Assembly (NCBI GenBank): GCA_963726455.1
Contig: CAVSCK010000004.1
Location: 448,001 to 512,000 of the forward strand
DNA: 64,000 nucleotides
From: an uncultured bacterium
GTDB lineage: Bacteria > Zixibacteria > MSB-5A5 > CAIYYT01
Reading direction: 5' to 3'
Position numbers and translations under genes: made by a program. A model generated the notes under the pieces. That model did no database searches and was not told the origin of the DNA. It worked only from the letters and a program-made list of their open reading frames with translations. This document shows positions 1 through 30,030 of this stretch, in pieces (the first letter of the stretch is position 1; every line of letters starts with the position of its first letter).

Positions 1-2
1 TC

Positions 3-9787: not shown

Positions 9788-10025
9788 GGGAACCGGTTCC
9801 CGCAATCTTCGGTAAGAACGCCGGCGGACAAACGCGGAAGACGATTGGGTCGCGCTGGCAGCCGGGCTGAGGCAACCTTATCGCATTTTCCGCTTAACAA
9901 CGCAGTTTCCTTCTTGTTTGTCCGGCGTTGTCGATCTATTTTGTAAGCAGGGGATTTCGGCGTGTCCTTCGGAACGCGATCCGCGATGAATGGAAGATAC
10001 CCAGACTGCATTTCGGGAAAACCGC

Positions 10026-12440
10026 ATGTTTAGTATTGGATCTAATGTAGGCAGCTATCGAATCGTTAGACGACTTGGTGAAGGCGGAATGGGAGTCGTC
10101 TATGAGGCCGTCGATGAGCGACTTGATCGAACGGTTGCTCTCAAAGTAATTTCGGAAAAGTACGGTTGCGATCCGAAATACAGGGCAAGACTTTTCCACG
10201 AAGCCAAGAGCGCTGCCAAGATCAATACAGATCACGTTGTTAGGATTTGGGAATGCTCGGAATTCGAGGGCACTCCTTTCATTTCCTATGAGTACGCGCC
10301 GGGCCGCTGCCTGGACGAAGTGATGCAGAAACTCTCCTTCGATGAAAAGGTAAGAATCGCCCGCGAACTGGCAGAAGGTTTGCAGATTGCACATTCGCTT
10401 GGGGTCATCCATCGCGACTTGAAACCGGGAAACATCATTGTCTGCGACGGCGGTTCCATCAAGATTCTTGACTTCGGCCTGGCCAAAATCATTAACGCTG
10501 ATTCCGTTGACAGTCAGGGGAATATCGAGGGGACCCTTTTCTATATGTCTCCGGAGCAGATCTCAGGTGCAACGCAGACATCGTCCACCGATATTTATAG
10601 TTATGGCGTGATTCTATATGAGCTATTTACCGGCCACAAACCATTCGACGGCGAGTACTCCGCCGCCATCATTTACTCCATACTCCATGAGGATCCTGTA
10701 CCTCCCAGTGAACTAAATTCGTCGCTGCCGGAATGGGTCAATCCGCTAGTGCTGAGACTCCTGGCCAGAAATACCGCAGACCGCTTCCCAGACATGGGTT
10801 CGGTACTTGAATATCTTGATGCCACGCAGACAAGTCATGGCGCAGCCACCCGAATCGGTGCATACAAGACCCGCAAGCGAACGATAACGGTCACGCATCT
10901 CAGAAACCTCTCTGGTGATCCGTCGTGGGACTATTTCTGTGCAGGATTTACCGAGGATCTGATTCGTGAGATTTCGCTGCGTACTGACACCGTGGTGTCG
11001 GTTGAACCGGAGAGTTCGGGAGAACGAGAGATCGCGAGCATTTTCCGGAAGTGTCGATCAGATTATGTGCTCACAGGGACCCTGATGCGATGGCAAGAGG
11101 AGATCAAGCTCGGCCTAAGTGTCTATGGTGAGAACGGCGATAAGCTGATTTATGGCGAGCAGTTTCGCGGAGGGGTAAAGCAGTTGTTCGAACTGCTATC
11201 TCGCGCCGCCCGAAATGCCTCTGAGGCACTGGCCAAAGCCAGCGGCGCAGCTTTGGTCGATGTCGATCGCCTCCTGAATACGAATGTCCCTGCCTACGAT
11301 TTCTATCTGAAAGGCAGAAGCTATTACCATACCAGTAAACCAGAGGATTTGGAGTCTGCCATCAACATGTTCAACCGGGCGCTGGAGCTGGACCCGAATC
11401 TTGCGCTCGCGAAGACCGGGCTTTCCGATGTCCATGCGTTTCAGTACAATGCTTATTATGACCGCCGTCCTGAGAAGATCGAACTTGCGATTCAGGAGGC
11501 ACAACAGGCGCTGGCAATCGATTCCCTTCTTCCTGAAGCCCATCGTGCGTTAGGGCGGTGCTACATGTTTGTCGGGGACTTCGATAATGCCGAAAAATCA
11601 CTGATGAGATCTGTAGACATTGCTCCGAAGTTTGCCATGGGCTACCGATCGCTGGCCTGGCTCAAGGACATGGCGGGCGACGACGAGGCTGCCCTCGTCT
11701 GGGCCAAGAAGGCATTGGAATTGGCCCCTACCGATCTTGAGACGCTGTTGCTTCTGGGTCTGCTATATCTGGACATGCGCAAATTCACACTGGCAATGGC
11801 CACGCTTCAGCGCGCCGTGGAATTGGGTCCCGACTACGGCCGGGCCTATTACTATCTGGGCATTGTCTTCACGAAGCTAGGGGTACCGGACATCGCTGTC
11901 GAGAACTTGCAGTTGGCAATTAAGTACAAAGGAGATCCCAACAGCTACATTGACGCCGGATATGCTGATATGGTATTGCGAAACTATGGTCGCGCGAAGA
12001 CATTTTTCTGTGAATCACTCGAACGGGGCTATATGCCTTTTATCGCCCTCTACTTCCTCGGGCTGATCTGTCTAATTCAGGGCGACCAGGAGATGGCGAC
12101 GGGTTATTTTGAAGATTCTTCTCGCTCAGCAGAGGACTATCTCGCTCGCGACCCTACCAACTGTCACGTTGCAAGTTATCGTGCACTCGCGCTTGCCGCG
12201 AGCGGCAGAAAGACCGAAGCAATTGAGATACTGGAGAGGATGTCTAACAATCCCGCCTGCCAGGGGGATCTGCTACACAACGTCGCAAGATGTTACGCTC
12301 TTCTTGGCGATAAGGAGAAGGCCGAGCTATTCAAGACCAAAGCAATCGGGCACCATGCCGGGCCCACACTCAAGGAACTTGAGGGCGATCCTCACTTCCT
12401 GATTCACTTCAACTGCGGCGGCTTTCGTTCGCAGAATTAA
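10026..12440 (+). CDS. Hanks-type Ser/Thr kinase with TolB-N-like domain and TPR repeats
   Basis: LGEGGMGVVY, VALK, HRDLKPGN, DFG, DIYSYG; AYDFYLKGR followed by TPR helices; start could be 9990. Confidence 0.93.
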   Translation: MFSIGSNVGSYRIVRRLGEGGMGVVYEAVDERLDRTVALKVISEKYGCDPKYRARLFHEAKSAAKINTDHVVRIWECSEFEGTPFISYEYAPGRCLDEVMQKLSFDEKVRIARELAEGLQIAHSLGVIHRDLKPGNIIVCDGGSIKILDFGLAKIINADSVDSQGNIEGTLFYMSPEQISGATQTSSTDIYSYGVILYELFTGHKPFDGEYSAAIIYSILHEDPVPPSELNSSLPEWVNPLVLRLLARNTADRFPDMGSVLEYLDATQTSHGAATRIGAYKTRKRTITVTHLRNLSGDPSWDYFCAGFTEDLIREISLRTDTVVSVEPESSGEREIASIFRKCRSDYVLTGTLMRWQEEIKLGLSVYGENGDKLIYGEQFRGGVKQLFELLSRAARNASEALAKASGAALVDVDRLLNTNVPAYDFYLKGRSYYHTSKPEDLESAINMFNRALELDPNLALAKTGLSDVHAFQYNAYYDRRPEKIELAIQEAQQALAIDSLLPEAHRALGRCYMFVGDFDNAEKSLMRSVDIAPKFAMGYRSLAWLKDMAGDDEAALVWAKKALELAPTDLETLLLLGLLYLDMRKFTLAMATLQRAVELGPDYGRAYYYLGIVFTKLGVPDIAVENLQLAIKYKGDPNSYIDAGYADMVLRNYGRAKTFFCESLERGYMPFIALYFLGLICLIQGDQEMATGYFEDSSRSAEDYLARDPTNCHVASYRALALAASGRKTEAIEILERMSNNPACQGDLLHNVARCYALLGDKEKAELFKTKAIGHHAGPTLKELEGDPHFLIHFNCGGFRSQN

Positions 12441-12505: not shown

Positions 12506-15163
12506 TTACTTACATGCTGCACAAGGCGCCGGACCACCGCTAAAGATGTAACTGATAATGTACACGGCATCCGAGATGTCAACGAAGCCGTCGCAGTTAG
12601 CATCGCCCACCACCTGGGGTATAGGCGCCGGACCGCCGGAGAAAATGTATGCAATCAGTGCGACTACGTCCGAGATATCGGTTGCGCCATCGCCGTTCGC
12701 ATCACCGCAGACTTGGGCTATCACATAGACTGCGTAGGGATGCGAATAGGGCGCGGCAACTCCACCCTGGAACGACCGCACGCGCCAATAAAACACCGAA
12801 TCAATGCCCAATGCCGATGTCGGTGTGTAAGTGGCAGTGGTTAAACCCCCGATATCGCAGATCGGCGCCCGAAAATCGAGATAGCGATCCAGTTGAAACT
12901 GAAAACTATCCGCCGCCATCGACTTCTGCGCGAGACCACTCCAGTTGAAGATCGGCCGCGCGGCCGGCAACGCCCGGCCATTGGCCGGATGTACCAAAGA
13001 GACCGGCTCCACATCATAATAGAATACCAGGCTGTCGCCCCGCGGAGGAATTCGATAACAATCCGCCAGATGCGCCGACGTCGTGCCGTCGATGCGGATC
13101 CCGACCTCGAACAGTGTGCCGTTCGAAGTGTCCGATCGCGGTTCGACAATTATGCGGTAGCCGCCATACTGCAAGTTATAATCGAAAGCCCGTTCATCCA
13201 ATGTGTCGTCGCCGTTAGCGTCCAACCGCCCGTAGGCCGAGCCGGCAACCGTCTGCAACGGTCTCGAGATAACAAGATTCAACGGGTTGACGATCCGCAA
13301 TGTTACGTTGCCGTAACCTGTGGTGACCATTTCGTCCGGTAGAATCGGATCGGCCGGCAGACCATTGATCGCCAAAACAATCGGGTTCCCTTGCTGTCCG
13401 CCGATCGCAAAGTCTGGTGCGCCGCTACGATCAAGATCCCCGGCAACCAGAGCGTATAGCGCACTCGTTCCGCTGCCCAAAGGAATGTTGGGCTGTGGAG
13501 TCAGATTCCCCAACCCATCGTTCTTGCAGATGACCAGTGCGCGCGTCTTTGCGTTGACAGCACTAACATCCAGGTCGCCGTCCTTTTCCACGTCGGACAA
13601 AGCCAGATTCAGCAGCGTCCCCGCGAATGCCAGCGTGTCACTGTTTGCGATCCCGCCGCTGCCATCACCCAGACATACCGTGACCACGCTGGTGTCATCG
13701 CCGAGAGTCGAATTGCCGGTGACCGCTACGAAATCACGTTTGCGGTCGCCGTTCAGATCGATGTCCGCTTTGACGGTCGCGAAGTCGAAGGCACGATAGC
13801 CAATTCGCACGGCGGCCGATCGCGTAAGATTGCCCGAACCGTCGTTCAGAAACATCTTGGCCGAGTCTCCGATCGTCGCCACAAAATCATCGTAGCCGTC
13901 ATTGTTGAAATCGGCTGCATCGACAGCGTCAAACGAGAACGTCAGAGTCGCGCTGGTCGGAAAAGCGCCTGTGCCGTTGCCATAGAGAATCTGGTTCTCG
14001 CTGACAATCAGATCCAGATAAGCATCGCGGTTGAAATAACCGGCTGCGATGGCCGGGAAGACCGTGCTGTTTAATGACCGAATCGCAGAGGAGGAATAGC
14101 TGACGGTTTGCGAATCGATAGCAAAATTGCGGGAGCCCTGGTTGAGCAGGATATAAATCTTGTCCGTTGTGTGGGCAACGATATCCAACAAAGAGTCACT
14201 GTCGACATAACCCACCGCCAGGGCCGCCTGTTTCACTTTCAGGTAGTTGCGCGGCGCCTCAAACGTGCCGTCGGACTTGCCATAGATCACGTAGAGGCTG
14301 TCATCGGTACGACCGGTGTAGACGATGTCCGCATAGTTGTCCTGATCCAAATCGGCCTGGCGCACATAGAAAACATCCACAGTGTCGGTGGTCGTGACGA
14401 CATCAAATCCCGGTTCGCACTTGACATATGCCGGGCGGATAGGACCTCCCGGGACAGTTGAGAACATGAAATCACCGGCGGGACCGACGAAGGCAGAGTC
14501 AAGATCGATAAACTGGGTGGGACTTCCGGCCAGAATACGCGCGTAAAGCGTGAAGAGCAACCCGTTATTCTGAGGATTAATTGGTTGCGATGCCATTATG
14601 TCAATCCAGCCAACCAAGACTTTATTGCTCGCCGGTACAAATTTCTTCTGAAGCGATCCCCCGGGAATAATTGAGCCAGTCGAACTCACACTCGTGATCT
14701 CGATGTCATTCGAAGCATAATGAAACCCAAGCGAAAACCCATTCAATCCCACCGTGTTATCAATGTATATTGGAATTGCCACGGAGTCGTTGTTTCCTGA
14801 ATACGGCCTGCAACCCATCCTTACCTTATTGCCGGCGACGGTTCCGTAATTGCAGCCCACGGGGACCGAGCACCCGGAGGGGGCCGGCCCGCCGCCGAAA
14901 ATGTATTTGCACAAGTATGCCGCGTCGGCCACGTTAACTCCGCAATCATTGTTGGCATTGCCCGACTCCAACGGGATTGGAGTCGAACCACCGCCAAAGA
15001 TATAATTGATGAGGTAGACTGCATCAGATATGTCGATGGTTCCGCTGGCATTCGCATCCCCGCAGGTCCAGGGCAGACGAGGATTCTGGCCCTTCAGCTC
15101 TACAGGTCTAGAGATGCAGAAGCCCGCGCAAATTGTCACGATCAGCATTAGTCTCTTAATCAT
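12506..15163 (-). CDS. Secreted dockerin - cohesin-like - FG-GAP - dockerin protein
   Basis: GGAGG SD and signal peptide; N- and C-terminal GDAN...DISDAVY dockerins; cohesin-like segment (VAIPIYIDN...GLLFTLY); FG-GAP module paralogous to 3501-5390. Confidence 0.85.
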   Translation of the reverse strand: MIKRLMLIVTICAGFCISRPVELKGQNPRLPWTCGDANASGTIDISDAVYLINYIFGGGSTPIPLESGNANNDCGVNVADAAYLCKYIFGGGPAPSGCSVPVGCNYGTVAGNKVRMGCRPYSGNNDSVAIPIYIDNTVGLNGFSLGFHYASNDIEITSVSSTGSIIPGGSLQKKFVPASNKVLVGWIDIMASQPINPQNNGLLFTLYARILAGSPTQFIDLDSAFVGPAGDFMFSTVPGGPIRPAYVKCEPGFDVVTTTDTVDVFYVRQADLDQDNYADIVYTGRTDDSLYVIYGKSDGTFEAPRNYLKVKQAALAVGYVDSDSLLDIVAHTTDKIYILLNQGSRNFAIDSQTVSYSSSAIRSLNSTVFPAIAAGYFNRDAYLDLIVSENQILYGNGTGAFPTSATLTFSFDAVDAADFNNDGYDDFVATIGDSAKMFLNDGSGNLTRSAAVRIGYRAFDFATVKADIDLNGDRKRDFVAVTGNSTLGDDTSVVTVCLGDGSGGIANSDTLAFAGTLLNLALSDVEKDGDLDVSAVNAKTRALVICKNDGLGNLTPQPNIPLGSGTSALYALVAGDLDRSGAPDFAIGGQQGNPIVLAINGLPADPILPDEMVTTGYGNVTLRIVNPLNLVISRPLQTVAGSAYGRLDANGDDTLDERAFDYNLQYGGYRIIVEPRSDTSNGTLFEVGIRIDGTTSAHLADCYRIPPRGDSLVFYYDVEPVSLVHPANGRALPAARPIFNWSGLAQKSMAADSFQFQLDRYLDFRAPICDIGGLTTATYTPTSALGIDSVFYWRVRSFQGGVAAPYSHPYAVYVIAQVCGDANGDGATDISDVVALIAYIFSGGPAPIPQVVGDANCDGFVDISDAVYIISYIFSGGPAPCAACK

Positions 15164-15375: not shown

Positions 15376-16431
15376 TCAAGTGTTATTGCGCCTGCGAGAG
15401 TCGTGTTGCGGGGATTCTTCCGCCCATTTGTCAAGCATGAATCGCTGCCAGAGGTCCTTGCTGCTGGAACGGAAGAAGGGCAGAATTGCCAGCCTACCCG
15501 TCTTGCCGATGCTCTTCTCCAGGTACTTCAGTTCCGCAAATTTCTCCACAAGTTGTGGCTCCGGAGAAACAGGCAAGCCGAACTCTCGCATGAGCAGTAT
15601 GCCTTTGACCTGTAAAGACAGCTCGAGTTGGAGTCGCACAAGACAAAGCATGTCCGCAACAACCTCACCTCGGAATCGGCTCTTTAATGATTCGAGGTAG
15701 GCACCGATCTTGGTCTGCGAGATATTGCCGCTACAGATCAGATCCAACAACTCCATGTCAGCATCCAAACCAATTCCCAGCCACTTCTGGGTGGCTTTCT
15801 CGCTCTTTTCGAACACGAAAATCACCAACAGAGGTAAGCAAATCAGCAGAATGACGGTCGATAACAGTGGGGAGATGAGAAAATTGTTATAGACGGCATG
15901 GACAAGGATTGCCAAGCACAGACCTGGAAGGAAAACAACAATTCTGTGGGTTTGGTGGCGATCTGACAGATACTTGGAAATCATCCCCAGTATCGCCGCC
16001 GTGCTTCCGTGCATGACCGCAGTGCCGAAGCCACGAACGACCCAAAGGAGGATGTTAGAATTCGTTAGGGCGTTCAGGTAATAGATGTTTTCGACAAGAG
16101 CAAATCCGGCGCCGACTGCAAAACCATAGATTGCCGCATCGACCAGAAATCCGATTCGCGTCTTTCGCAACAGATAGATGACATAAGCGGCCTTCAGTAG
16201 TTCCTCAGTCAGCGGTGCAATGTACGCTGCGAGATTGGACACGCTGAGAGAGAAAATCCGGGTCAGCCCGGTGTTGAGAAACAGGCCGACTACGGCAACA
16301 AGACAGCCTGCAAATATGGCCCTTGTTGCCGATCGAAGACTAACCAGCTTGTAGCTGTCGAGGAAGATCAGCACAGCCAGAAAAACAAACACGGGAACTA
16401 AACTGACGAATACTTTGATGAGCTCGGTCAT
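15376..16431 (-). CDS. prsW: PrsW-family intramembrane metalloprotease with C-terminal extension (copy 2)
   Basis: APLTEELLKA, GFALVEN, MHGS, VHAVYN; ATGA overlap with the upstream gene. Confidence 0.88.
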   Translation of the reverse strand: MTELIKVFVSLVPVFVFLAVLIFLDSYKLVSLRSATRAIFAGCLVAVVGLFLNTGLTRIFSLSVSNLAAYIAPLTEELLKAAYVIYLLRKTRIGFLVDAAIYGFAVGAGFALVENIYYLNALTNSNILLWVVRGFGTAVMHGSTAAILGMISKYLSDRHQTHRIVVFLPGLCLAILVHAVYNNFLISPLLSTVILLICLPLLVIFVFEKSEKATQKWLGIGLDADMELLDLICSGNISQTKIGAYLESLKSRFRGEVVADMLCLVRLQLELSLQVKGILLMREFGLPVSPEPQLVEKFAELKYLEKSIGKTGRLAILPFFRSSSKDLWQRFMLDKWAEESPQHDSRRRNNT

Positions 16432-19400
16432 AACACTTTGAGCGAAAACATCAGCTCGGTAGATGCCTTTTCTCCCTTTTCAAATGCCGCAGCATAACCC
16501 ACCGACATCGTCATGTTGAGGTGTGACAACATGATCAAGCGAAAATCCAGTTGCGAACCGACGTTCAGTAATGATCTTCTTACTTGTTCACTGTCGAAAT
16601 CAGTGACAATTCCCGTGGAGAACAGAGCCAACCTCAACCAGGTGCCAAACAGCGATGGCGTTCCAAGTCGTCTGAACCTGATGGGTGGGAGCGACCATTC
16701 CGCCATCAGCTTGCCATAGTTGATACCTCCGATAGCGTTTAGCTCGACTCCCGGAAAGCTGTAATAGGCTCGGTATCTCCTTTCCGACTGGTAATCTACC
16801 CAGTTGTTTCCAAAACCTCCAAAGTAGAATCTTGCCAGAGGTTCGATCCGATTACTTGGGGAAAAACCTGCAGAACTTCTGAACCAAATCGAAGAATGGT
16901 TTATGGGAAGCGGTAGTCCCCAGTCAAACTTGGTGAAGAACCGTGGAAATATCTTGCGGTTGACGAACTTCGCGTTGGCGGCAATTTGACACGAAAGACC
17001 TTTCTCAAAGTCGACTGCTCCGAGAGAGGATCTCTGATTGCTGAAAAAGAGAACTGAATTGACGGCGATGAATCGATCGTACGAGGTGGTCACATTCTGG
17101 TACTCTGGCAGCCTCTGCAAATCGCCATATCTCGTGACACCGAAATTGCAGTCCATCTGTTTGGGGCCGTCAGACAGCAGCTTCTTTTGGTATTTGATTC
17201 CGAGAGAATATCCTTTTCGGCTGGTCTTGGTCGGACCGAAGAGATCATAGAAATCAGCGGCGTTGTACGCCAAGTCTGCTTCCCAGTTCGAGTAGCTGTA
17301 CCTCCAACTTGCGTGAACTCTCTCACTGCGGGGCAAAGCTCCTCCGGGGCTGTATGAAACGGAAAGTGCCGAGTTGTGTAAGGCAATCGGGTCGGAAAGG
17401 CTGAGATGTACTCCCACGGCGGCGTAATTCTGATAGCCTTCGACAATCGGATAAGCCGACACGAGTCTGATGTTCTTCAGACCGGAATACCCGCCGGAAT
17501 GCGTGGTAAGCGAGTCGATATTTACTGCGGCTGGGGATCCGGCGAGCCAGCCGGTCACTTCGGGATATTTTTCGACAATTTGCTGGCCCAGGTAGACAAT
17601 GGCGCTTACGTCTTCAATGGGCTTGTTGGCTATCATCACGGGAGAAAAGCCGCCACCCGAAAAGCGAAATACAATTAACGAGTCATCGGAGATCGGGACC
17701 GGCCGGAAGAATCCGGTTTCGCAATTGCTCAGAACCTCCATGGAGTCCGTTTCGATTGAGTATCTGAATATGTTCGAAACGCCGGTATAGTAGGACGATC
17801 CGTAGAGATATTTCCCGTCGGGGGAAAAGACGAAGCCAGCTGGATTGCTGTTCTCAAAATTGTGGAGGACCTCGTAAGTAGTGTCGCCAGCCAGAATCTT
17901 CGCCGTCTCCATTTTGATTAGACGCTGGCTGCCGTCAATCTCGGCAAGCGCGGCGGAAAGAAGAGTACCATCAGGCGAAATATCAATATCATAGATATCT
18001 CGACCATAAGGCCACGAGTAAACCTGATTCCACTCCTGGTAAGGATAGGGGATTTTGACTATCGTTGAGATACCGTTGAAGTGCCTTACACCCCAAATGG
18101 ACTTGTCGGAGGAACTAAACGCCAAGTCGCCGATTCTTGCGTCCTTCAGAAGAATCCTTTTCCTTCCTGAGGCAATCTCAACGACATTGAGGTCCCGCCA
18201 TTCGTCGTTGTCGGTAGTGAAAAAGAGCTTGCCCGACGAGGCGTCGAAGGCCAGCGAAGCTGCGTAGAACAGTGTGGCCCCCTTAATCTCGCAGATCGGC
18301 TTGGAACTGCCGTCTTCGATGCGGATCCCTGCCAGATGGGCAACTTGCCCGGGATAGTTGACCGCAGCATACAATGTTTTCGTTGCAGGATCGAAGTAGG
18401 CCCGCGAAACCGAACCGAGAGGGTTTCGCGATAGCATTCTATATGGAGTTGTGGGATACAGGCGAATCGAATCGAGGTTGGCCGCTTGAAACTGTTGTTC
18501 CCATTGAATCCATTGTGACCAAGCGTCGTCAAGAGATAATCTGTAAGTCTTCCGAAATTGCGAAGCGAAGTAGCTTTTCGTATCCGGACCGCGGGACACC
18601 CACTTTACTAATAGTTGCGGACCATATTGGTAGGCCAGATAACTCATGAATCGCGTACCGTAAAGGTAGGAATTCACGCCCACCTGAAAGTCAATCTTCG
18701 TACCTTCCGATTCCAATCCGATCAAATCGTAAATGTGACTACTGTCACGGACAAGCGTTCGGAAAACCATCTCGTCGTAAGCTCCCAGAGCCCTTCCCAA
18801 ACCCCCCGCCATCCAGGTTTCCATGAATACGGCAATACCTTCGTGATACCATCTGGGAGCGGATCGACGAGGAGTCGTGAGATGACTATAGAAGATCGAG
18901 AGTGGGTTTTCCGAGGTTTCGCTTACCTTGCCTCGAAAGAGTGTCCTGAAGAATCTATCACTTCGGGATGCTTTGTCTCCGGCGATGATGTGAACGATCT
19001 CGTGATTCATGATGGCATTCATTCGCTCATTCGCCGGAGCTGTTTCGTACACGTAACTGATCGGTGCTATCGCAACGGATATGCGATTGTTGGGAGCCGT
19101 GCTGGCGCCGGCATTGCCATAATCACCAAGATCATGCAAGAAGACGGTGATCTTTTGCGACGGCGCGTAATTCCAGAATTTCTTATGGAATGCCAGTGAG
19201 TTCTCGAAACAACGGGCCGCATGGGGAACCAGGTAGGACTCCGCCTGGCCGTAATAGACCAGCCTCAAGTCTTTGGTCTCAAGTGAATACAGTTGCGCGA
19301 AGAGAGAAGGCGCCGTGAAACTAATAGCCAACAGAAAAAAGACTTTCACACGAAGACTGGTCGACAACCAGCGACTTGAATCAGGGTTTGAATACCACAC
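16428..19400 (-). CDS. Exported protein: HExxH zinc-peptidase-like domain + TolB/PD40-like propeller + probable outer-membrane beta-barrel
   Basis: Signal peptide ending SLFA-Q; HEIVH...PRWYHEGIA; DISPDG and FSPDGKYLY; amphipathic C-terminal strands and FYFGG; start uncertain (19400 or 19349). Confidence 0.75.
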   Translation of the reverse strand: MWYSNPDSSRWLSTSLRVKVFFLLAISFTAPSLFAQLYSLETKDLRLVYYGQAESYLVPHAARCFENSLAFHKKFWNYAPSQKITVFLHDLGDYGNAGASTAPNNRISVAIAPISYVYETAPANERMNAIMNHEIVHIIAGDKASRSDRFFRTLFRGKVSETSENPLSIFYSHLTTPRRSAPRWYHEGIAVFMETWMAGGLGRALGAYDEMVFRTLVRDSSHIYDLIGLESEGTKIDFQVGVNSYLYGTRFMSYLAYQYGPQLLVKWVSRGPDTKSYFASQFRKTYRLSLDDAWSQWIQWEQQFQAANLDSIRLYPTTPYRMLSRNPLGSVSRAYFDPATKTLYAAVNYPGQVAHLAGIRIEDGSSKPICEIKGATLFYAASLAFDASSGKLFFTTDNDEWRDLNVVEIASGRKRILLKDARIGDLAFSSSDKSIWGVRHFNGISTIVKIPYPYQEWNQVYSWPYGRDIYDIDISPDGTLLSAALAEIDGSQRLIKMETAKILAGDTTYEVLHNFENSNPAGFVFSPDGKYLYGSSYYTGVSNIFRYSIETDSMEVLSNCETGFFRPVPISDDSLIVFRFSGGGFSPVMIANKPIEDVSAIVYLGQQIVEKYPEVTGWLAGSPAAVNIDSLTTHSGGYSGLKNIRLVSAYPIVEGYQNYAAVGVHLSLSDPIALHNSALSVSYSPGGALPRSERVHASWRYSYSNWEADLAYNAADFYDLFGPTKTSRKGYSLGIKYQKKLLSDGPKQMDCNFGVTRYGDLQRLPEYQNVTTSYDRFIAVNSVLFFSNQRSSLGAVDFEKGLSCQIAANAKFVNRKIFPRFFTKFDWGLPLPINHSSIWFRSSAGFSPSNRIEPLARFYFGGFGNNWVDYQSERRYRAYYSFPGVELNAIGGINYGKLMAEWSLPPIRFRRLGTPSLFGTWLRLALFSTGIVTDFDSEQVRRSLLNVGSQLDFRLIMLSHLNMTMSVGYAAAFEKGEKASTELMFSLKVL

Positions 19401-19512
19401 GTTGAATCTCCAAACGAAGCAAACGATCTTGGCGGGTCAAAGTGCACTTTACCGACTGGCCAGTGAAAGGATGATCTCTAGTCTTTGACAGACGTGTGTA
19501 AAGATAGTCGAA

Positions 19513-19544
19513 GGAGACGCCGCGACCGTAGCCGCAACATCTCC
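19513..19544 (-). terminator. 14-bp stem with UACG tetraloop after the repeat-protein gene (weak terminator or mRNA-stabilising stem)
   Basis: GGAGATGTTGCGGC-TACG-GTCGCGGCGTCTCC on the minus strand; no clean U-tract. Confidence 0.5.
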
Positions 19545-19585
19545 CCCGTAGCATATCATCCCGGTTACTGGCGGGGTCAGTATCC

Positions 19586-21019
19586 CTACTTTTCCGTGAC
19601 CTCGTCAGCCTTGGTTCTGCTGAAATCCATATTTGCGACCGCCGCGCTGAATTCGGGATAGGCGGTAGCCCGGTTAAATTCCTGGACTGCCATTGCCCGG
19701 CTGAGCTCCTGATTTGCCAGGCACTTCGCAAATTGAGGTTGTGCCATCGCTCTGCTGAATTCTTGCGATGCAATCACCTGGGAAAAGGATTGATCTGCGA
19801 CCAAATTGCGAAAATCTCCTGAAGCAAATGCGCGGGAAAACTCCTGATCTGCAATTGCTCTGCGAAATTCGGGCACGGCCATGGCTTTGGCAAAATCCTG
19901 ATTAGCCCACAGCCTACTGAACTCCGGAGTCGCAATCAGACTGACGAACTGCGGATTCGCGGCCAGTCTGCTAAATTCGGGAACGGCAAGCAGTTTCGCG
20001 AAGTCCGGGTTCGCAGCCACTCGGCTCATGTCCGGGTTGGCAAGCAGCTTGGCAAAGTCCGGACTGGACGCCATACGGCTCAGTTCGGCTGTAGCAAGCA
20101 ACTTCGCAAAATCCTGGTTGGCTGCCAACCTGCCGAATTCCGGGTTCGCAAGTAACTTGGCAAAGTCAGGATTGGGAGCAAGCCGGCTCAACTCTGCATT
20201 GTTCGCCAATTTGGCGTAATCAGGAACGGCCGATAGTCTGCTCATATCGGCGCTGGCAACTATTTTCGCAAATTCGGGATCCCGAGCCAGTCTGCTGAAA
20301 TCAGGGTTCGCGAGCAGCTTGGCAAAGTCAGGGGCGAGCGCCATTTTGGCGAATTCCTGACGGGCAACAACCTTGGCGAAATCGGGGTCCGGAGTGAGTC
20401 TGGCAAATTCCGCGTTAGCCAGTAGAGCGGCAAACTCCGGATTGGCTGAGAGTCTCCCGAACTCCGGCGTTATGAGCAGCTTGGCAAAGGAAGGTTCAGC
20501 TGCTAACCTGCTAAATTCGGGATTCGCGGCGAATTTAGCAAAGTCCGGGTTAGCCGAAATGCGACTGAAATCATGATTGGAAAGGATTTTGGCGAAATCC
20601 GGATAGAGAGCAAATCTGCTGAAGTCCGCATTGGCCATGGCTTTTGCAATGTCTGGATTCGCGAAAGCACGACTGAAATCCTGATTTGCCAATGCCGCGC
20701 GAATGTCAGGATTGGCCATCAGCCGGCTGAATTCCGAACTAGCCGCCATAGTGCGAAAGTTCTCATCCTTGAGTAGCGCCAGGACCTTGTCGTTCTGAAG
20801 CAGTGCCTGTAGCTCGCTGTTGCCTAGTACGACATCCTTATCGCTCATCTGGTTAGTACGATACTTCTTTGCGGCGCCGATCGTTCCTTGACTGTCCGTT
20901 TCTGATGGTGGGAAGCCCGTTAGGGCAAAGTATGCGATCACTACTACCACGACTATTATCCCGCTAAAAAGGATCTTAGCCTTGCCGCTACCGAGAAAAG
21001 ACTTTCGTGGTTCTGCCAT
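19586..21019 (-). CDS. Membrane-anchored 9-residue tandem-repeat protein, function unknown
   Basis: GGAGG SD; TM helix at about aa 16-34; 45 consecutive nonamers of the NPDFAKLLA/NPEFSRLAA type. Confidence 0.9.
   Translation of the reverse strand: MAEPRKSFLGSGKAKILFSGIIVVVVVIAYFALTGFPPSETDSQGTIGAAKKYRTNQMSDKDVVLGNSELQALLQNDKVLALLKDENFRTMAASSEFSRLMANPDIRAALANQDFSRAFANPDIAKAMANADFSRFALYPDFAKILSNHDFSRISANPDFAKFAANPEFSRLAAEPSFAKLLITPEFGRLSANPEFAALLANAEFARLTPDPDFAKVVARQEFAKMALAPDFAKLLANPDFSRLARDPEFAKIVASADMSRLSAVPDYAKLANNAELSRLAPNPDFAKLLANPEFGRLAANQDFAKLLATAELSRMASSPDFAKLLANPDMSRVAANPDFAKLLAVPEFSRLAANPQFVSLIATPEFSRLWANQDFAKAMAVPEFRRAIADQEFSRAFASGDFRNLVADQSFSQVIASQEFSRAMAQPQFAKCLANQELSRAMAVQEFNRATAYPEFSAAVANMDFSRTKADEVTEK
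19607..20821 (-). repeat. Coding tandem repeat, 45 x 27 bp with a 54-bp superperiod
   Basis: Manual parsing: 66 aa + 45x9 aa + 6 aa = 477 aa with no indel. Confidence 0.9.
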
Positions 21020-21081
21020 TGCAACCTCCTATGAATGGACGTGAATTACCGGGGTTACCTTGTCCCCAAACTTCTTTTACC

Positions 21082-21111
21082 AAGTACAGTTCAGTTCTCT
21101 AAGAGTTGGTC
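21082..21111 (-). promoter_or_regulatory. Putative ECF promoter GACCAAC-N17-GTACTT upstream of the repeat-protein gene
   Basis: Matches the motif upstream of both sigma copies. Confidence 0.65.
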
Positions 21112-21147
21112 AATCTTTCATTTCCTCCTCGCTCCATTGCCTTTTGA

Positions 21148-21936
21148 TCAGTGAGAGTGCTGTCTCGTATATAGAGTTTCCTCCCAAGAATCATCAGATG
21201 AACGAACGCGAAACTGCATTGCCGAGATATCATTGCTCTTGTCCTTGAAGAGGAGGAAATATTTCTCCTCCCCGTCCTGCGTAAGTCGGACTTGATTCTC
21301 GTTAATCTCCAATGTCTTGGGGACGTGACCTAGTTGTCTCATACCCTCAAGATCGAGATGTCGATTGTCAAAACTGATAGTCACCTCGACACCTCTGTTC
21401 GAAGTCAGATCTATCTCGGCGATGACAGTTCCCGTTGAATATTCTATCCTGACCGTGCCTTCAGCATTTCCGATTGTGAAATCTATCTGATCAGCAACCT
21501 GAACGCTGTCGACGGCGCCGCCCAGATAGATCGAACCAGCCAGACTGCGAATATTCCAAGGAGGGATTACTCCGATGCTGCCGACGAGCAGAGCAAATGA
21601 GAAGATGCCTACGACTATGCCCGCCAACAGGGAATAGGCATACTTGACATTTACCTTGAGGGCTAACGACCCGACGACGGACTCAGGAATGCCGCGATTC
21701 TTTCTCCCCGCGGATCCCTCAGCTCGAACCTGTCGCAAGACGGCGTGTTTCAGCTCCATGGGCGGATCTGCCTTTTGCTCCTGCGCCAACCATCGGAAGA
21801 GTTGGAGGAAACTGTCATATAGCATTTGCGCGTCAGGGTTTCGTCGGAGATACTCCTGCAACTTGAGACGTTGTCTGGGTTTGATCGTCCCATCAAGATA
21901 CTCACTCATAAGTCGAACATGTTTTTCGGAAGTCAT
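21148..21936 (-). CDS. Single-pass anti-sigma factor (copy 2)
   Basis: LMSEYLDG...ADPPMELKHAVL, one TM helix, C-terminal domain collinear with 1669-2445. Confidence 0.8.
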   Translation of the reverse strand: MTSEKHVRLMSEYLDGTIKPRQRLKLQEYLRRNPDAQMLYDSFLQLFRWLAQEQKADPPMELKHAVLRQVRAEGSAGRKNRGIPESVVGSLALKVNVKYAYSLLAGIVVGIFSFALLVGSIGVIPPWNIRSLAGSIYLGGAVDSVQVADQIDFTIGNAEGTVRIEYSTGTVIAEIDLTSNRGVEVTISFDNRHLDLEGMRQLGHVPKTLEINENQVRLTQDGEEKYFLLFKDKSNDISAMQFRVRSSDDSWEETLYTRQHSH

Positions 21937-22322
21937 CGGCCACCGTTCCCCTCTGTTTCACGGCTCGCTCAGCTAGCGTTTGGCGGTGAAGAGCCTTGAC
22001 TCGACGTTCTTCAAGAGAAATCTCAGTAAGTGAACAACCGTTTTGAGCGAGAAACCGTCGAAGTGCCTGACGAAATTCAGGACCTTCAGTTAGGTTGGCA
22101 GACCCCTCGCGCAATCCGGACGCCCTTACTTATTTCGTTGCCGACACGGTCTTCCTCCGGATATTTCGCCGCAGAGGCCCGGCCCTCGGCAAACTCTTGG
22201 CCTCCGATCAATCTCACCGGCGAGTTGACAGACGGTCTCCGTCATCCACCCAACATCTCAATTGACTTCAAATTGCCGTCAAGCCACTCCCTGATCATGA
22301 TGGGATCACCGTTGTCTGTCAT
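21933..22322 (-). pseudogene. Decayed ECF sigma factor, paralog of 2438-2986
   Basis: Fragments REWLDGNLKSIEML, *RRPSVNSPVRLIG, YPEEDRVGNEISKGVRIA and VRHFDGFS...KNVESRLFTAKR* align to the intact sigma; stops, a frameshift and an internal deletion. Confidence 0.85.
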
Positions 22323-22352
22323 AATTACATTTGATCCCCCGAAAAGTTGGTC
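22323..22352 (-). promoter_or_regulatory. Putative ECF promoter GACCAAC-N17-GTAATT
   Basis: Same position relative to the ATG as the motif at 2987-3016. Confidence 0.55.
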
Positions 22353-22648
22353 GTCACATTTCTACGTGAACGCTTTGGTACCAACAGAGTAGCGAGTCTC
22401 AGGCAGGTCGGCTTATACCTTCCTGTCGTCGAACCGCGTAATCGCGCCTATCGCGTCGAATCTCCGCCAGTTCCGTCGAAGTCGATGACCCGAACAAACC
22501 GGGTCGCACAAAGAGCCCTCTTAAGCGAATTTTCGTTTTGCATGCCCCCGAATGCAACTCGTTCCTGATGGAAATTATAATAGGAGATGTGCTCTTGAAA
22601 TGCAAGGCGAATTCTGGCAAGAACCTTTTCTGTATTTGAATTCGAATC

Positions 22649-22933
22649 TTAGTCGATTTGAAAAACCTGAAGCAGGCCGGAAATCTGGAAGACGTTTCTG
22701 ACGTGTTTGTTCATGTTTGTGAGTTTTACAGTCTTTCCCAGCTTCTCCAATCTATTGTGAGTAGCCACCAGTACACTCAGCCCCGCGCTGGAAATGTAAT
22801 CCAGATTCGTCAGGTCTACCGTGAGGGAATCGTCGATAGTCTCAAATATTGGCAGCGCTCTACTAACTTGCGAGGCGTCGAATCTGCCCGAAAGAAAGAT
22901 TTCCTTCTTGTCAGTCACCTTAATGTCCAACAT
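22649..22933 (-). CDS. STAS-domain anti-anti-sigma factor (copy 2)
   Basis: LDYISSAGL, VFQISGL; 94 aa. Confidence 0.92.
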   Translation of the reverse strand: MLDIKVTDKKEIFLSGRFDASQVSRALPIFETIDDSLTVDLTNLDYISSAGLSVLVATHNRLEKLGKTVKLTNMNKHVRNVFQISGLLQVFQID

Positions 22934-23339
22934 CGTTTTGCTCCAGGTGTTTGATCATGGTTATTGTGCTGGTGCGGTTAACATAATCATAATATACGTG
23001 ATCTACTATATTCCTGACCAGGTGCAAGCCCAATCCTCCCGCTTTTCTTTCTTGAACATCCCGGGCGTTATCCACTTCCTGCCACTTGGTTATGTCAAAT
23101 CGGTTGGAATCGGAATCAATCAGACGAATGGTCAAGTCATTTCCGCTCCTGACCAGGTCTATAAGGATGCCTGTCGAACCCATGGGATCATACTTGACGA
23201 GGTTCGTGAAGATCTCCTCGACTGCCAGGTTCACGGTATAAGCGACGTCTTGCAGCAACTCCTGCTGCAAGACGAAGTCCTGGATAAATTCGAAAATCTT
23301 CTCCAACGAATCGATCTGCCTGGGGAACACCTTCTCCAT
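22920..23339 (-). CDS. RsbW/SpoIIAB-like anti-sigma Ser kinase (HATPase_c_2)
   Basis: LAVEEIFTNLVKY, GGLGLHLV; overlaps the STAS gene. Confidence 0.9.
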   Translation of the reverse strand: MEKVFPRQIDSLEKIFEFIQDFVLQQELLQDVAYTVNLAVEEIFTNLVKYDPMGSTGILIDLVRSGNDLTIRLIDSDSNRFDITKWQEVDNARDVQERKAGGLGLHLVRNIVDHVYYDYVNRTSTITMIKHLEQNDVGH

Positions 23340-24488: not shown

Positions 24489-25685
24489 ATGGAATCTGTT
24501 GAGTTGACGAAACATATATACTGGGTGGGGGCTGAAGACCCTGATCTGAGGATCTTTGACATAGTCGTAAACACTGAATTTGGAACGACCTACAATTCGT
24601 ACCTGGTTCTCGGTGAGAAGGTTGCTCTTATCGACGCTGTGAAGCAGGAGTTCGAGGAGAAGCTCTTCCGCAAAATCCAGGAGCACGTGCCGATTGATCG
24701 GGTCGACTACCTGATCGTGAATCACACCGAGCCCGACCATTCCGGAGCGATACGTTCACTACTTGCCCTGAATCCCAAGATCCGATTGGTCTGCAGCAAG
24801 CCGGCCGTGCCGTTCCTGCGCAACATCGTCAACGACGACTCAGTCCAGATCGACGGCGTCAAAGGCGGCGACACACTTGATCTCGGCGGGCTCACTCTCG
24901 AATTCATTTCTGCGCCGTTTACGCATTGGCCGGATACGATGTTTACTTTTTGCCGTGAGGAAGAGGTGCTGTTTCCATGTGATGCCTTTGCTGCTCATCT
25001 AGCGCCTCGGGGGTCAATCTTTGCGGAACGGGGAGATGCATTTCATGAGCAGGAGGCATTCCGCTATTACGACGCTATCATGCGGCCATACTCATCATAT
25101 TCTCGCAAAGCAGCGGAAGCTGTCATTAACCGCAATATCCGGATTGTTGCTCCATCGCACGGTCCCATAAGTAAGGATGAACCCAAGCGCATTATCGCGA
25201 AGTATCTGGAATGGACAGCGCCTAAGAGCGACGGCAACGACACTGCGATTCTGGTCGCATATTCCAGTTCATACGGCAATACACGAATCATGGCAGAGGA
25301 GATTGACAAGGCCTTGCGCAATGCCGGAGTCAAGACGTCCCTTGTCGATGTCACGAAAGTTACCGCCGGCCAGTTGCGCGATCACTACGAATCATCAGGG
25401 GCCATCTTGTTCGGAACGCCGACGTTCGTCGGGGATGTCGTCAAACCAATCTGGGATGCAGCACAATTGCTGATGAGTGTTGCCACTACCGGCAAAAAGA
25501 CCGCCGTCTTCGGATCGTATGCCTGGGGAGGGCAGGGGGTCGATATATTGGAGAATTATCTCGAAGGACTCAAACTCAAGGTGCGCAAACCCGGACTTAA
25601 AGCTCGGCTGGTTCCGTCTAAGACCGAACTGGAGGCGTGCCGGCAATTTGCCCTCGATTTCCTCAGTTTTGTCAAGGAGGGGTGA
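24489..25685 (+). CDS. fprA: Flavodiiron protein (class A flavoprotein, O2/NO reductase)
   Basis: GTTYNSYL, NHTEPDHSG, HWPD, PSHG; flavodoxin SSYGNT and FGSYAW. Confidence 0.95.
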   Translation: MESVELTKHIYWVGAEDPDLRIFDIVVNTEFGTTYNSYLVLGEKVALIDAVKQEFEEKLFRKIQEHVPIDRVDYLIVNHTEPDHSGAIRSLLALNPKIRLVCSKPAVPFLRNIVNDDSVQIDGVKGGDTLDLGGLTLEFISAPFTHWPDTMFTFCREEEVLFPCDAFAAHLAPRGSIFAERGDAFHEQEAFRYYDAIMRPYSSYSRKAAEAVINRNIRIVAPSHGPISKDEPKRIIAKYLEWTAPKSDGNDTAILVAYSSSYGNTRIMAEEIDKALRNAGVKTSLVDVTKVTAGQLRDHYESSGAILFGTPTFVGDVVKPIWDAAQLLMSVATTGKKTAVFGSYAWGGQGVDILENYLEGLKLKVRKPGLKARLVPSKTELEACRQFALDFLSFVKEG

Positions 25686-26479: not shown

Positions 26480-27036
26480 TCGCTACAGATTTCGTCCCGT
26501 CAAGATTAATCATTTCGGAACCGATAACGTATAAGATGTATATTGGTAGTTGGTTAGCTGCCTGTGTGGCTGCCAAAGGGTAGAGAAATTGCTTGACATA
26601 ATGCGAAAAAATGTTATTGTTCGTTTACTGACGGCGGTTGATGCCGTTGGAATTGACAGTTTTTCCGGGATTTATCTGCTGAGTTATCCATCGACATTGT
26701 CTGTGACGAGGCCTGCTTCCTTAGTGCATCTCAAAGTGTCTAAAAGCTTTGGCCGACATCTGGAAAGCGCTAGTAAATCGGTACAATCTCGGGTGAATCG
26801 TTCACCTCTCTATGGTGCACCAAACGCTTTGATTTCGATTTAAGACTTCCCCTTGACCGCATTGGATTGTCAGCGAACGCGCGGTATATTGCGTCAGCGA
26901 CGCTGGCTATTGCTGTGTGATGGGGAGTCGAAAGGAGCAGGCAGACACCGAGTAGCAGACCTTAAGTAGAAACAGAACAAATGAAGTACGGTGGCCAGGT
27001 GGTTCACCGGTATTTTATCACTTTTTGGAGGACCAA

Positions 27037-27372
27037 ATGAATATCTACGTGGGAAACCTCTCACACGACGCGACTGAAGACGAATTGAAGGCCATCTTTT
27101 CTGAATTCGGTCAGGTCTCAAGAGTATCTATTCTGAAGGACAGACTTAGCGGTGAGCCGCGCGGATTCGGTTTCGTCGAGATGGCGTCAGCGGAAGAGGC
27201 GAAAGCTGCTATTGCCGGCGCCAACGGCAGACAGCTTAAGGGCCAGTCGATCCGCGTTAATGAAGCGCGTCCGCGGGAGGACAACCCAGCCCGTGGTGGT
27301 GGCGGTGGTGGTGGCGATCGCCCGAGACGCCCCGGTGGTGGTGGTGGCGGCGGTGGCCGTCGCGGCTGGTAA
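27037..27372 (+). CDS. RRM RNA-binding protein with Gly-rich tail
   Basis: RNP2 IYVGNL, RNP1 RGFGFVEM, VNEARPRE; GGAGG SD. Confidence 0.96.
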   Translation: MNIYVGNLSHDATEDELKAIFSEFGQVSRVSILKDRLSGEPRGFGFVEMASAEEAKAAIAGANGRQLKGQSIRVNEARPREDNPARGGGGGGGDRPRRPGGGGGGGGRRGW

Positions 27373-30012: not shown

Positions 30013-30030
30013 CTTCACTCCTTGCCGGTT

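Follow-up and report, generated by a model that had tools for sequence, protein, structure and literature searches.

Envelope events reach inner-membrane anti-sigma factors by stepwise proteolysis in the E. coli sigma-E/RseA/RseB/DegS/RseP and FecA-FecR-FecI systems. Partner switching is exemplified by RsbU/RsbP-RsbV-RsbW-sigma-B, by SpoIIE-SpoIIAA-SpoIIAB-sigma-F, and by the Bordetella extracytoplasmic function (ECF) sigma factor BtrS with BtrU/W/V. To our knowledge, PrsW-dependent anti-sigma proteolysis is known almost only from Firmicutes. The Bacillus subtilis PrsW is the site-1 protease of RsiW, an anti-sigma factor (PMC10202637, in the part consulted). Here we describe a gene cluster that brings together an RsbW-like kinase, a STAS protein, an ECF sigma factor, its anti-sigma factor, a repeat protein, a protein of 990 amino acids (aa) and a PrsW protease, in a 64,000-nucleotide (nt) stretch (hereafter the window) of Zixibacteria contig CAVSCK010000004.1 (GCA_963726455.1; positions 448,001-512,000). 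The host genome is 3.64 Mb in 5 contigs and 100% complete. REP and BIG serve as working names for the repeat protein and the 990-aa protein, and coordinates are window positions unless a host contig is named. The cluster is a conserved unit of seven to eight genes in bacteria of the Fibrobacteres-Chlorobi-Bacteroidetes (FCB) group. We lean, by a little, towards reading it as a regulated-proteolysis circuit that depends on PrsW, feeds back positively and takes input from a phospho-switch, a proposal drawn from sequence. The cluster comprises the following features:

22920-23339, minus strand: RsbW-like serine kinase / anti-sigma-type GHKL protein, 139 aa (PF13581 HATPase_c_2, E 9.9e-18)
22649-22933, minus strand: STAS anti-sigma antagonist, 94 aa, with ISSAG motif (PF01740, E 3.9e-11; PF13466, E 1.4e-10)
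22320-22353, minus strand: ECF-type promoter motif CCAACTTTT-N13-TGTAATT abutting the ATG of the dead ECF gene (position weight matrix (PWM) score 31.4 bits)
about 21902-22322, minus strand: ECF sigma pseudogene (tblastn with the sister ECF and the ECF of locus L099; nucleotide alignment to L099)
21148-21936, minus strand: single-pass anti-sigma factor, 262 aa, following ECF directly (NCBIfam antisigma, E 2.2e-6, below cut-off)
21079-21112, minus strand: second copy of the ECF-type promoter motif, 60 nt upstream of REP (PWM 23.1 bits)
19586-21019, minus strand: REP, 477 aa, with N-in anchor, GTIGAAKKY and 45 repeats of 9 aa (repeat register and column counts)
16428-19400, minus strand: BIG, 990 aa, with signal peptide, HExxH+E domain, propeller and barrel (invariant residues and predicted model)
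15376-16431, minus strand: PrsW-family intramembrane protease, 351 aa (PF13367, E 6.5e-24)

The RsbW-like and STAS genes overlap by 14 nt, and the end of BIG and the start of PrsW share ATGA. The original prediction, made from the letters of the window, had named these seven co-directional minus-strand genes and suspected decay of the ECF gene; the genes lie where it placed them, and the ECF gene is truly decayed.

The unit is widely conserved. Among 8000 candidates scored, 6172 were BIG relatives with E <=0.001; within the best 120, all the named ones are called 'hypothetical' except one 'YncE family' protein. A scan of one genome per species gave at least 631 confirmed loci, of which the best 80 were kept, and a metagenome scan added 80 more, for a sample of 160 loci. 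Genes were found in the first 80 loci by tblastn, with order counts taken from the loci that had enough flank. PrsW lies no more than 1.5 kb downstream of BIG in 59 of the 61 loci whose flank is 1.3 kb or longer; in the two exceptions (L006 and L012) it stands at the cluster head, in front of RsbW. The 42 loci with at least 5.5 kb of upstream sequence yielded ECF (42), REP (41), anti-sigma (39), STAS (38) and RsbW (36). All seven genes were found in 30 of the 35 loci with both flanks, misses being confined to L015, L028, L049, L064 and L080; the anti-sigma and REP misses, at least, are failures of sensitivity, with open reading frames (ORFs) of fitting size present. The order RsbW-STAS-ECF-antisigma-REP-BIG-PrsW repeats in most of the 160 loci, a recurrence far beyond chance; related genomes are not independent, and these counts are given without a test statistic.

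A phylum sample of 285 genomes tells the same of BIG and PrsW: 35 genomes have both, 3 BIG only, 14 PrsW only and 233 neither (totals of 38 for BIG and 49 for a PrsW match). The three genomes with BIG only are 78-84% complete or have a truncated BIG. The 14 with PrsW only comprise nine weak matches, three PrsWs of another type and two of the same type; one of these last two was examined, and its PrsW lies at a contig end. Absence of such co-occurrence had been named in advance as what would count against a single system; the homologues do co-occur, adjacent to each other and across many phyla. By submitter label, the best 80 loci are from Eisenbacteria (16), Bacteroidota-type bacteria (14), Ignavibacteria (12), Zixibacteria (6), Calditrichia (6), Chlorobiaceae (3), KSB1 (2) and Acidobacteria (2), with one each from Latescibacterota, Krumholzibacteriia, Fibrobacteraceae and Dormiibacterota, and 15 unlabelled. 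Nearer to the host the cluster is accessory, being carried by none of the three genomes of the same genus and by 3 of the 18 of the same family.

A further permuted order is REP-BIG-RsbW-STAS-ECF-antisigma-PrsW in genome G040 (C22:30000-44000). It follows that the two halves can be permuted, and that ECF-antisigma-PrsW, which is also the make-up of a sister module described below, is a natural sub-unit. A short ECF-antisigma-PrsW module in G064 was rejected as a further case; the PrsW there lies at a contig end. In locus L067, REP and BIG are separated by three additional ORFs of 303, 100 and 368 aa.

Two promoters can be predicted in the cluster. In an unbiased count of 4-mer/3-mer dyads, CAAC-N17-GTA occurred upstream of ECF in 41 of 62 cases and upstream of REP in 54 of 80, against 21 of 62 and 22 of 80 for the best dyad in shuffled sequence; the same count gave no comparable dyad upstream of BIG. 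The full motif is aCCAACTTTT-N13-TGTAwTT, its spacing constant in 40 of the 41 instances at ECF (among 61 loci) and 51 of the 56 at REP (among 79). ECF promoters typically have an AAC core at -35 and GT(A/C) at -10. The gap between the motif and the ECF start codon is 0 nt in 30 of 41 instances, which suggests that the ECF mRNA has a very short leader or none. Over 2.0 Mb of loci the PWM gave 145 matches above 16 bits on the gene strand and 1 on the opposite strand. They stand before ECF in 76 of 87 cases and before RsbW, STAS, BIG and PrsW in 0 of 65, 0 of 72, 0 of 134 and 0 of 140, respectively; the matrix was trained on the same loci, so that the counts for ECF and REP are circular and only the zeros and the strand asymmetry are independent of training. 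The whole 3.64 Mb of the host genome holds 14 sites above 14 bits, and its top three are those of the dead ECF (31.4), REP (23.1) and the sister ECF (22.6).

Because one ECF-type motif precedes both ECF and REP, REP-BIG-PrsW is predicted to be driven by the sigma factor; ECF-antisigma and REP-BIG-PrsW are then the sigma's own putative regulon, with RsbW-STAS outside it. The promoter evidence says that REP-BIG-PrsW, under its predicted sigma promoter, is a feedback or an effector operon. The original prediction had an outer-membrane sensor, a repeat protein and PrsW relaying a signal inward to the anti-sigma. Its idea of one conserved unit holds. The inward relay is no more than a possibility, and the promoters place REP-BIG-PrsW itself as output of the sigma.

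Near one end of the window lies a second, smaller module, and between the two modules are genes for a phosphatase and a kinase:

3139-3423, minus strand: sister STAS (STAS_2, E 9.6e-13)
2984-3017, minus strand: sister promoter motif abutting the ECF ATG (PWM 22.6 bits)
2438-2986, minus strand: sister ECF sigma factor, intact, 182 aa (Sigma70_r2, E 9.9e-14; r4_2, E 6.3e-16)
1669-2469, minus strand: sister anti-sigma factor, 266 aa (NCBIfam antisigma, E 5.8e-4, below cut-off)
651-1658, minus strand: sister PrsW with the same C-terminal domain, 335 aa (PF13367, E 7.5e-18)
1-650, plus strand: CHASE2-SpoIIE (PP2C) membrane phosphatase, 3' part, the gene being cut by the window edge (whole gene C4:446743-448650, 635 aa)
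8330-9787, plus strand: GAF-SpoIIE (PP2C) phosphatase (SpoIIE, E 1.2e-46; GAF_2, E 3.4e-17)
9990-12440, plus strand: Ser/Thr kinase with TPR repeats (Pkinase, E 1.7e-46)

The sister STAS-ECF-anti-sigma-PrsW module, the two PP2C genes and the Ser/Thr kinase had all been predicted, and all are present in the window. The sister ECF scores 99.3 against a cut-off of 42.9 with TIGR02937 and matches regions 2 and 4, which places it in the ECF superfamily. SigW is its second-best NCBIfam model, and neither the SigW nor the RpoE equivalog cut-off is reached, those matches staying below cut-off. Its anti-sigma is 30% identical to that of L099 and its PrsW 50% identical to the main PrsW; in a tree made by a quick method the sister PrsW is unplaced, on a long branch, and it may be an old duplicate or a transfer. 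The module has no REP, BIG or RsbW of its own.

The main ECF gene was compared with metagenome locus L099, the closest relative fetched, which has the same seven genes with an intact 183-aa ECF (78.5% nucleotide identity with the window over 6.8 kb; BIG 86% identical in protein). Relative to L099 it has lost about 150 nt internally, covering most of region 2, and has in-frame stops from substitutions and at least two single-nucleotide deletions, so that the reading frame is not intact; the promoter and ATG are kept. ECF orthologues in relatives are intact, at about 180 aa. On this alignment we consider the gene a real pseudogene: its decay is unlike the homopolymer slips of long reads, because the stops arise by substitution and together with a deletion of about 150 nt. 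Any signalling in the host genome must therefore go via the sister ECF. With the same motif in its own promoter, the sister ECF is most likely the factor that drives both operons here, including the main REP-BIG-PrsW, and the degenerate main copy is probably rescued by a paralogous sigma.

The dead gene invites a plainer account, namely that the main cluster of this genome is a decaying, non-functional relic and that only the sister module works. The pseudogene itself would fit this, as would the patchy occurrence of the cluster (0 of 3 genomes of the genus and 3 of 18 of the family). We nevertheless hold it very improbable. The six other ORFs are full length and 60-86% identical to their L099 counterparts; neither promoter motif is damaged, and no other site in the genome scores as high as these two; the sister ECF, whose own promoter has the same motif, should recognise the main promoters; and the sister module would have to do without a REP, a BIG or an RsbW of its own.

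Several other genes lie close to the two modules or carry related motifs. Large paralogous surface proteins with SBBP, FG-GAP and dockerin domains flank both modules (3501-8312 and 12506-15163, both minus strand). The fourth-best PWM site of the genome (21.7 bits; C4:439009-439042, minus strand) is upstream of an 849-aa SBBP/DUF7948/dockerin protein, and SBBP/dockerin surface proteins may be further regulon members. A 17.1-bit motif precedes a TPR-CHAT gene beside the sister module. That gene belongs to a set adjoining the module at C4:441630-448650, made up of CHAT (314 aa), TPR-CHAT (1014 aa), a 335-aa protein with no Pfam match, and the CHASE2-SpoIIE phosphatase. The weaker sites (17-22 bits) at the SBBP/dockerin and TPR-CHAT genes were not accepted as marking regulon members.

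The main and sister PrsWs are the only two in the host genome, and score 85 and 65.2 bits with PF13367 (cut-off 23.5). Residues E76, E77, K80, E114, N115, H141, H178 and N182 are the same in all 33 sequences aligned; we take them to be the catalytic motifs EExxK, FxxxE(N), H and HxxxN. The PrsW model (predicted local distance difference test (pLDDT) 84.5) has seven transmembrane (TM) helices and a C-terminal helical domain at 222-339. Its best match among solved structures is APH-1 (8oqz_C; Z 14.4, root-mean-square deviation (rmsd) 5.2, 195 residues aligned), followed by one at Z 11.4, and the predicted fold is multi-pass helical, of the CPBP/APH-1 type.

The C-terminal domain, of about 145 aa, is represented by 509 clusters among 1.84 billion representatives. 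In the full-length matches listed it always forms the C-terminal end of a PrsW-like protein, about 335 aa long except for one of 568 aa, and it thus marks what appears from sequence to be a long PrsW subfamily. The positive-inside rule would place it in the cytoplasm. Foldseek gave no match for it at E <=0.001, and VIA-align matched it, uninformatively, with BAG and spectrin-like helical bundles at a Z of only about 7. M50 proteases are encoded elsewhere in the host genome.

REP has a basic N-terminus, one TM helix, the sequence GTIGAAKKY and then 45 nonamers at residues 66-470, in perfect register and free of insertions or deletions. The nonamer columns (counts of 45) are A33, N22, P24, D/E39, F35, S/A35, R/K36, L22 and L/A24. 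On the REP DNA, TRF sees just one 27/54-nt array at 19985-20190, and the repeats are therefore kept as protein, not as DNA. REP scores 65.7 bits with Pfam STI1-HOP_DP (PF17830; cut-off 29.1), in five partial matches to profile positions 5-28 of 55. Across lineages REP length varies from 144 to 816 aa, and the best period among 87 REPs is 9 in 28, 18 in 23, 12 in 15 and another value (7, 10, 11, 16 and others) in 21; Latescibacterota, Krumholzibacteriia and Eisenbacteria-type loci (e.g., L016, L045, L051, L067, L073 and L077) have REPs of 585-834 aa with 12-residue periods. Common to REP orthologues are only the N-terminal anchor and the motif [FY]PP-x5-6-G[TA]IGG[AV]KKYRxEQIxD, about 10 residues outside the membrane.

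The main anti-sigma has a putative N-terminal anti-sigma domain, a TM helix by hydropathy, a juxtamembrane AGSIYLG and an extracytoplasmic domain of about 130 aa. It has no Pfam match (zf-HC2 at E 0.14, with the Cys/His ligands absent) and scores 27.8 bits with NCBIfam antisigma, whose cut-off is 100. An ORF of 232-283 aa with a single TM helix starts between -60 and +120 nt from the ECF end in 46 of 57 loci; in the other 11 the ORF after ECF is 372-561 aa long. Ten long fused ORFs, overlapping with these 11, were inspected, and all combine the anti-sigma domain with a REP-type TM helix, GTIG and repeats, in loci that have neither a separate REP nor the anti-sigma beta-domain. By predicted domain content, then, the anti-sigma is fused to REP in about a fifth of loci. 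The fusions show that the REP repeats face outward and that REP is functionally tied to the anti-sigma.

Apart from the fusions, REP and the anti-sigma resemble each other in that both are N-in, cross the membrane once and carry, about 10-14 residues outside it, a related GTIG motif. A G[TSA][IVLM][GAYT] string occurs within 40 aa after the TM helix in 76 of 80 REPs, 20 of 47 anti-sigmas and 204 of 5000 random 40-residue segments. The separate anti-sigmas have a weaker G[TS][IM]G about 14 residues past the helix, with the G column at about 90% in the alignment; the juxtamembrane motifs of the two window anti-sigmas are AGSIYLG and RGSMVLG. A short conserved juxtamembrane motif in otherwise free-running proteins resembles a protease or docking site, which is why we propose GTIG as a candidate PrsW cleavage site. 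From the conserved adjacency and the shared GTIG we infer that the main-cluster PrsW may be the site-1 protease of the neighbouring anti-sigma.

In BIG, H133, E134, H137 and E187 (HExxH and a downstream Glu ligand) are invariant in 17 of 17 aligned homologues, marking BIG as a putative gluzincin (MA clan) metallopeptidase. Its model (mean pLDDT 68, the N-domain partly of low confidence) shows a helical N-domain, a six-blade propeller and a C-terminal barrel of about 16 strands. The propeller (model residues 318-573) matches TolB (1c5k_A; Z 23.0, rmsd 2.8, 240 aligned), as it does by Foldseek (6pnv, E 2.6e-9); the fold searches used the whole model and were filled by propellers, and their matches speak for the propeller. 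The BIG profile found only three matches among PDB sequences, at E >=0.15, and none of Pfam Peptidase_MA_2, Omp85 or POTRA is found in BIG at E <=10. The host genome has nine Omp85 and four Peptidase_MA_2 matches, with BIG not among them.

Three paralogues of about 920-1040 aa in the host genome combine Peptidase_MA_2, a PD40-type propeller and Omp85 (C5:326738-329857, C4:1327276-1330368 and C4:581898-584651). When the BIG profile was aligned by hhalign with a profile of 11 Peptidase_MA_2-PD40-Omp85 proteins, the probability was 99.5% (E 1.7e-22, 780 columns), query 32-910 running against template 44-946 with HExxH on HExxH and the (H)EG aligned. A direct hhalign comparison of BIG with BamA-type Omp85 barrels was rejected at a probability of 0.2%, so that the link from BIG to Omp85 runs only through the intermediate Peptidase_MA_2-PD40-Omp85 family. 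These profile alignments make BIG a divergent branch of the WD40-Omp85 class (peptidase-propeller-Omp85). That class has been listed without a function and with a TolB-like propeller (Heinz and Lithgow, 2014; PMC4104836, in the part consulted). BIG ends in ...SLKVL, with no terminal aromatic residue. The three paralogues start with FGKNKVQY, end in F and are present in all 12 relatives searched. The best Omp85 match of the host genome, presumably BamA (C3:107002-107985, minus strand; open frame 925 aa), has one in-frame TAG, which may be an assembly error, a pseudogene or recoding.

The promoter, motif and barrel findings also fit an account in which REP-BIG-PrsW is the product of the sigma factor. 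PrsW would cut REP, not the anti-sigma, from its anchor at GTIG, BIG would process REP or pass it to the surface, and ECF and anti-sigma would only set the expression level; in the fused forms, consumption of the cargo would free the sigma. A comparative genomics study has reportedly linked PrsW peptidases to release of membrane-anchored secreted proteins. A copy of the ECF promoter stands before REP-BIG-PrsW itself, which is almost the sole strong target in the genome, GTIG is stronger in REP than in the anti-sigmas, and BIG is homologous over its 780 aligned columns to proteins with a Pfam Omp85 barrel, a family in which Omp85/TpsB members translocate proteins (PMC4104836, same part). Yet the only PrsW role known from experiment is anti-sigma cleavage (PMC10202637, in the part consulted). 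ECF-antisigma-PrsW is kept without REP-BIG in the sister module and in the permuted order of G040. As to export, BIG does not compare with BamA-type barrels directly and has no POTRA match in Pfam, and the barrels of BamA and TamA are closed (PMC4104836, as above). We regard this account as rather unlikely.

The kinase and STAS genes suggest a second, cytoplasmic input. The RsbW-like protein matches NCBIfam RsbW at E 1.6e-7, below cut-off, and its residues E42, N46, G101 and G104 are invariant in 28 orthologues; we take E42/N46 and G101/G104 to be the kinase N and G2 boxes, and the STAS serine to be the phospho-site. STAS scores 50.4 with TIGR00377, below the cut-off of 53.45, and 37 of 43 STAS orthologue ORFs have the motif [ILVMF]S[ST][ASTG]G.

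Clustering the ORFs of the 160 loci gave, besides the seven families, one recurrent extra family, in 45 loci. One member scanned with Pfam is a GAF-SpoIIE PP2C phosphatase, and the window gene at 8330-9787 belongs to this family. Ten members lie 10-361 nt after PrsW on the same strand, and in 21 loci the member lies 7.6-11.9 kb upstream of the PrsW end, i.e., next to RsbW. The partner-switch set is complete in that this GAF-PP2C phosphatase recurs beside the cluster, and on its family membership the 8330-9787 gene probably supplies the switch with its phosphatase. More loosely associated is a Ser/Thr kinase with TPR repeats, encoded close to the cluster in 14 of 160 loci. The host genome has a serine-phosphorylation network of at least five HATPase_c_2, six STAS_2 and nine SpoIIE genes, and a 949-aa RsbW-SpoIIE fusion lies at C4:565273-567174.

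What this switch acts on could be the sigma factor itself: by analogy with sigma-B and sigma-F, the RsbW-like protein may be a second, cytoplasmic anti-sigma of the ECF, released by dephosphorylated STAS. Activation would then need both proteolysis and a phosphatase signal. This concerns one step only and is compatible with proteolysis of the anti-sigma as with export of REP. RsbW-STAS stands directly upstream of ECF in 36-38 of 42 loci, the usual place for such pairs, and the N-box and G2-box residues of the kinase and the ISSAG serine of STAS are conserved, with the GAF-PP2C gene recurring alongside. We treat it as a tentative possibility, on the unlikely side. ECF sigma factors lack region 3, which SpoIIAB contacts in sigma-F. 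The sister module has a STAS and no kinase, RsbW is not detectable in 4 of 35 full loci, the host's many HATPase_c_2, STAS_2 and SpoIIE genes make cross-talk possible, and the cytoplasmic domain that the PrsW subfamily itself carries is an alternative target.

The regulated-proteolysis circuit that we favour takes its start from the observed linkage, promoter motifs, GTIG motif, fusions and active-site residues. The anti-sigma would keep the ECF at the membrane. As to who cuts whom, and when, PrsW would act first, cutting the anti-sigma in its extracytoplasmic juxtamembrane stretch, and an unlinked M50 site-2 protease would complete its proteolysis; PrsW would also cut REP, making REP a co-substrate or competitor. 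The role proposed for BIG is that of an outer-membrane-anchored, gated metallopeptidase that strips protective outer parts before the PrsW cut or trims after it. Positive feedback would follow as the released sigma transcribes the operon of its own gene along with REP-BIG-PrsW. RsbW, STAS and GAF-PP2C would add a cytoplasmic phosphorylation input, with the ECF or the cytoplasmic C-domain of PrsW as candidate targets.

Several points weigh against this circuit. Control of PrsW by the sigma is as compatible with an effector operon as with a signalling one, and the circular part of the PWM counts, noted above, lends no separate help. The GTIG-like motif is matched by regular expression in under half (20 of 47) of the separate anti-sigmas. 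The wide variation of REP in length and period speaks against a fixed ruler or a specific fold, and the soluble domains of BIG may face either the periplasm or the surface. The cluster PrsW is not an equivalog of that of B. subtilis, since with NF033739 it scores 39.9 bits where the cut-off is 225. Finally, with the main ECF dead here and BIG and PrsW found in none of the three genomes of the same genus, the system is dispensable.

A bolder reading joins elements of the circuit and of export, and we think it clearly improbable: REP-BIG-PrsW would be a new envelope machine, with the sigma circuit wired to the flow of substrate and the protease gated by the phospho-switch at the PrsW C-domain. 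PrsW would free REP at GTIG, and the Omp85-related BIG would process or export it. Because the anti-sigma has the same site or, in a fifth of lineages, is itself joined to REP, each round of processing would free sigma and so order replacement parts. If true, the reading would give the first case of a partner switch whose target is an intramembrane protease instead of a sigma factor.

Ordinary genes unrelated to the cluster lie between it and a methylmalonyl-CoA/nuo region. They include a flavodiiron-type ODP-flavodoxin protein (24489-25685, plus strand), an RRM protein (27025-27372, plus strand; E 4.3e-23) and an SPFH/Band-7 protein with double zinc ribbons (28879-30018, minus strand).

We regard the regulated-proteolysis circuit, so far as its parts go, as an apparently undescribed, widespread variant of proteolytic signalling through an ECF/anti-sigma pair, to which three new obligatory parts and a phospho-switch are added. 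Judged from titles and the openings of abstracts, the literature searched contained no paper on a PrsW/ECF/anti-sigma/STAS cluster or on a tie between it and an Omp85-peptidase-propeller protein. The part of PMC7826278 consulted describes no ECF group with a PrsW and STAS context or a CCAACTT/TGTA promoter, and mentions PrsW only for Clostridioides groups and STAS only for ECF19 subgroups; its supplement, outside that part, and the ECF group HMMs could hold such a group. Within these sources the claim of the original prediction that no described system has this composition is borne out. At least 631 species-level genomes of the FCB group would carry this diderm version of PrsW-linked ECF signalling, labelled by their submitters as Zixibacteria, Eisenbacteria, Ignavibacteria, Calditrichia, KSB1, Latescibacteria, Fibrobacteres, Chlorobi-type and other Bacteroidota. 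It would link an ECF sigma to a serine-phosphorylation switch and give a first functional handle on the WD40-Omp85 class, on hypervariable helical-repeat membrane proteins and on the long PrsW subfamily. The predictions it offers are sharp, comprising a defined promoter, a candidate cleavage motif, catalytic residues and natural fusions, and the host genome offers a natural experiment, with the cluster sigma dead and a paralogous sigma with the same promoter motif 19 kb away.

Among described systems, B. subtilis sigma-W/RsiW/PrsW/RasP (and also C. difficile CsfT/CsfU-RsiT/RsiU-PrsW; PMC7826278, in the part consulted) shares with the cluster an ECF sigma, a single-pass anti-sigma, the PrsW catalytic motifs and an unlinked M50 protease. 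The cluster differs from the B. subtilis sigma-W system in its diderm host, in having PrsW in the same operon under the predicted promoter of the sigma itself, and in adding the PrsW domain of about 145 aa, REP and BIG as obligatory neighbours and the partner-switch set; it also scores far below the PrsW and SigW equivalog cut-offs. The sigma-B, sigma-F and Btr switches likewise have a PP2C phosphatase, a STAS protein with a conserved serine motif and a small GHKL kinase beside the sigma gene, whereas the cluster sigma is an ECF with its own membrane anti-sigma, and the gene order is kinase-STAS rather than STAS-kinase. As in the sigma-E and Fec systems, envelope or outer-membrane events would be passed to the anti-sigma by stepwise proteolysis; unlike them, the cluster has no DegS-type PDZ protease and no TonB-dependent transducer, its first protease would be of the PrsW type, and its proposed outer-membrane partner is a peptidase-propeller-barrel protein.

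Two of its parts have relatives of their own. BIG is like the WD40-Omp85 class in its TolB-like propeller and over 780 columns (99.5%; PMC4104836, in the part consulted), and differs in having no Pfam Omp85 or Peptidase_MA_2 match and in being the only branch tied to PrsW and an ECF sigma. REP and STI1/HOP DP (PF17830) both consist of short helical D/N-P-x-x repeats, whereas other REPs use periods of 12, 7, 10, 11 and 16 without the NP motif; the likeness is one of repeats, with homology at most a possibility.

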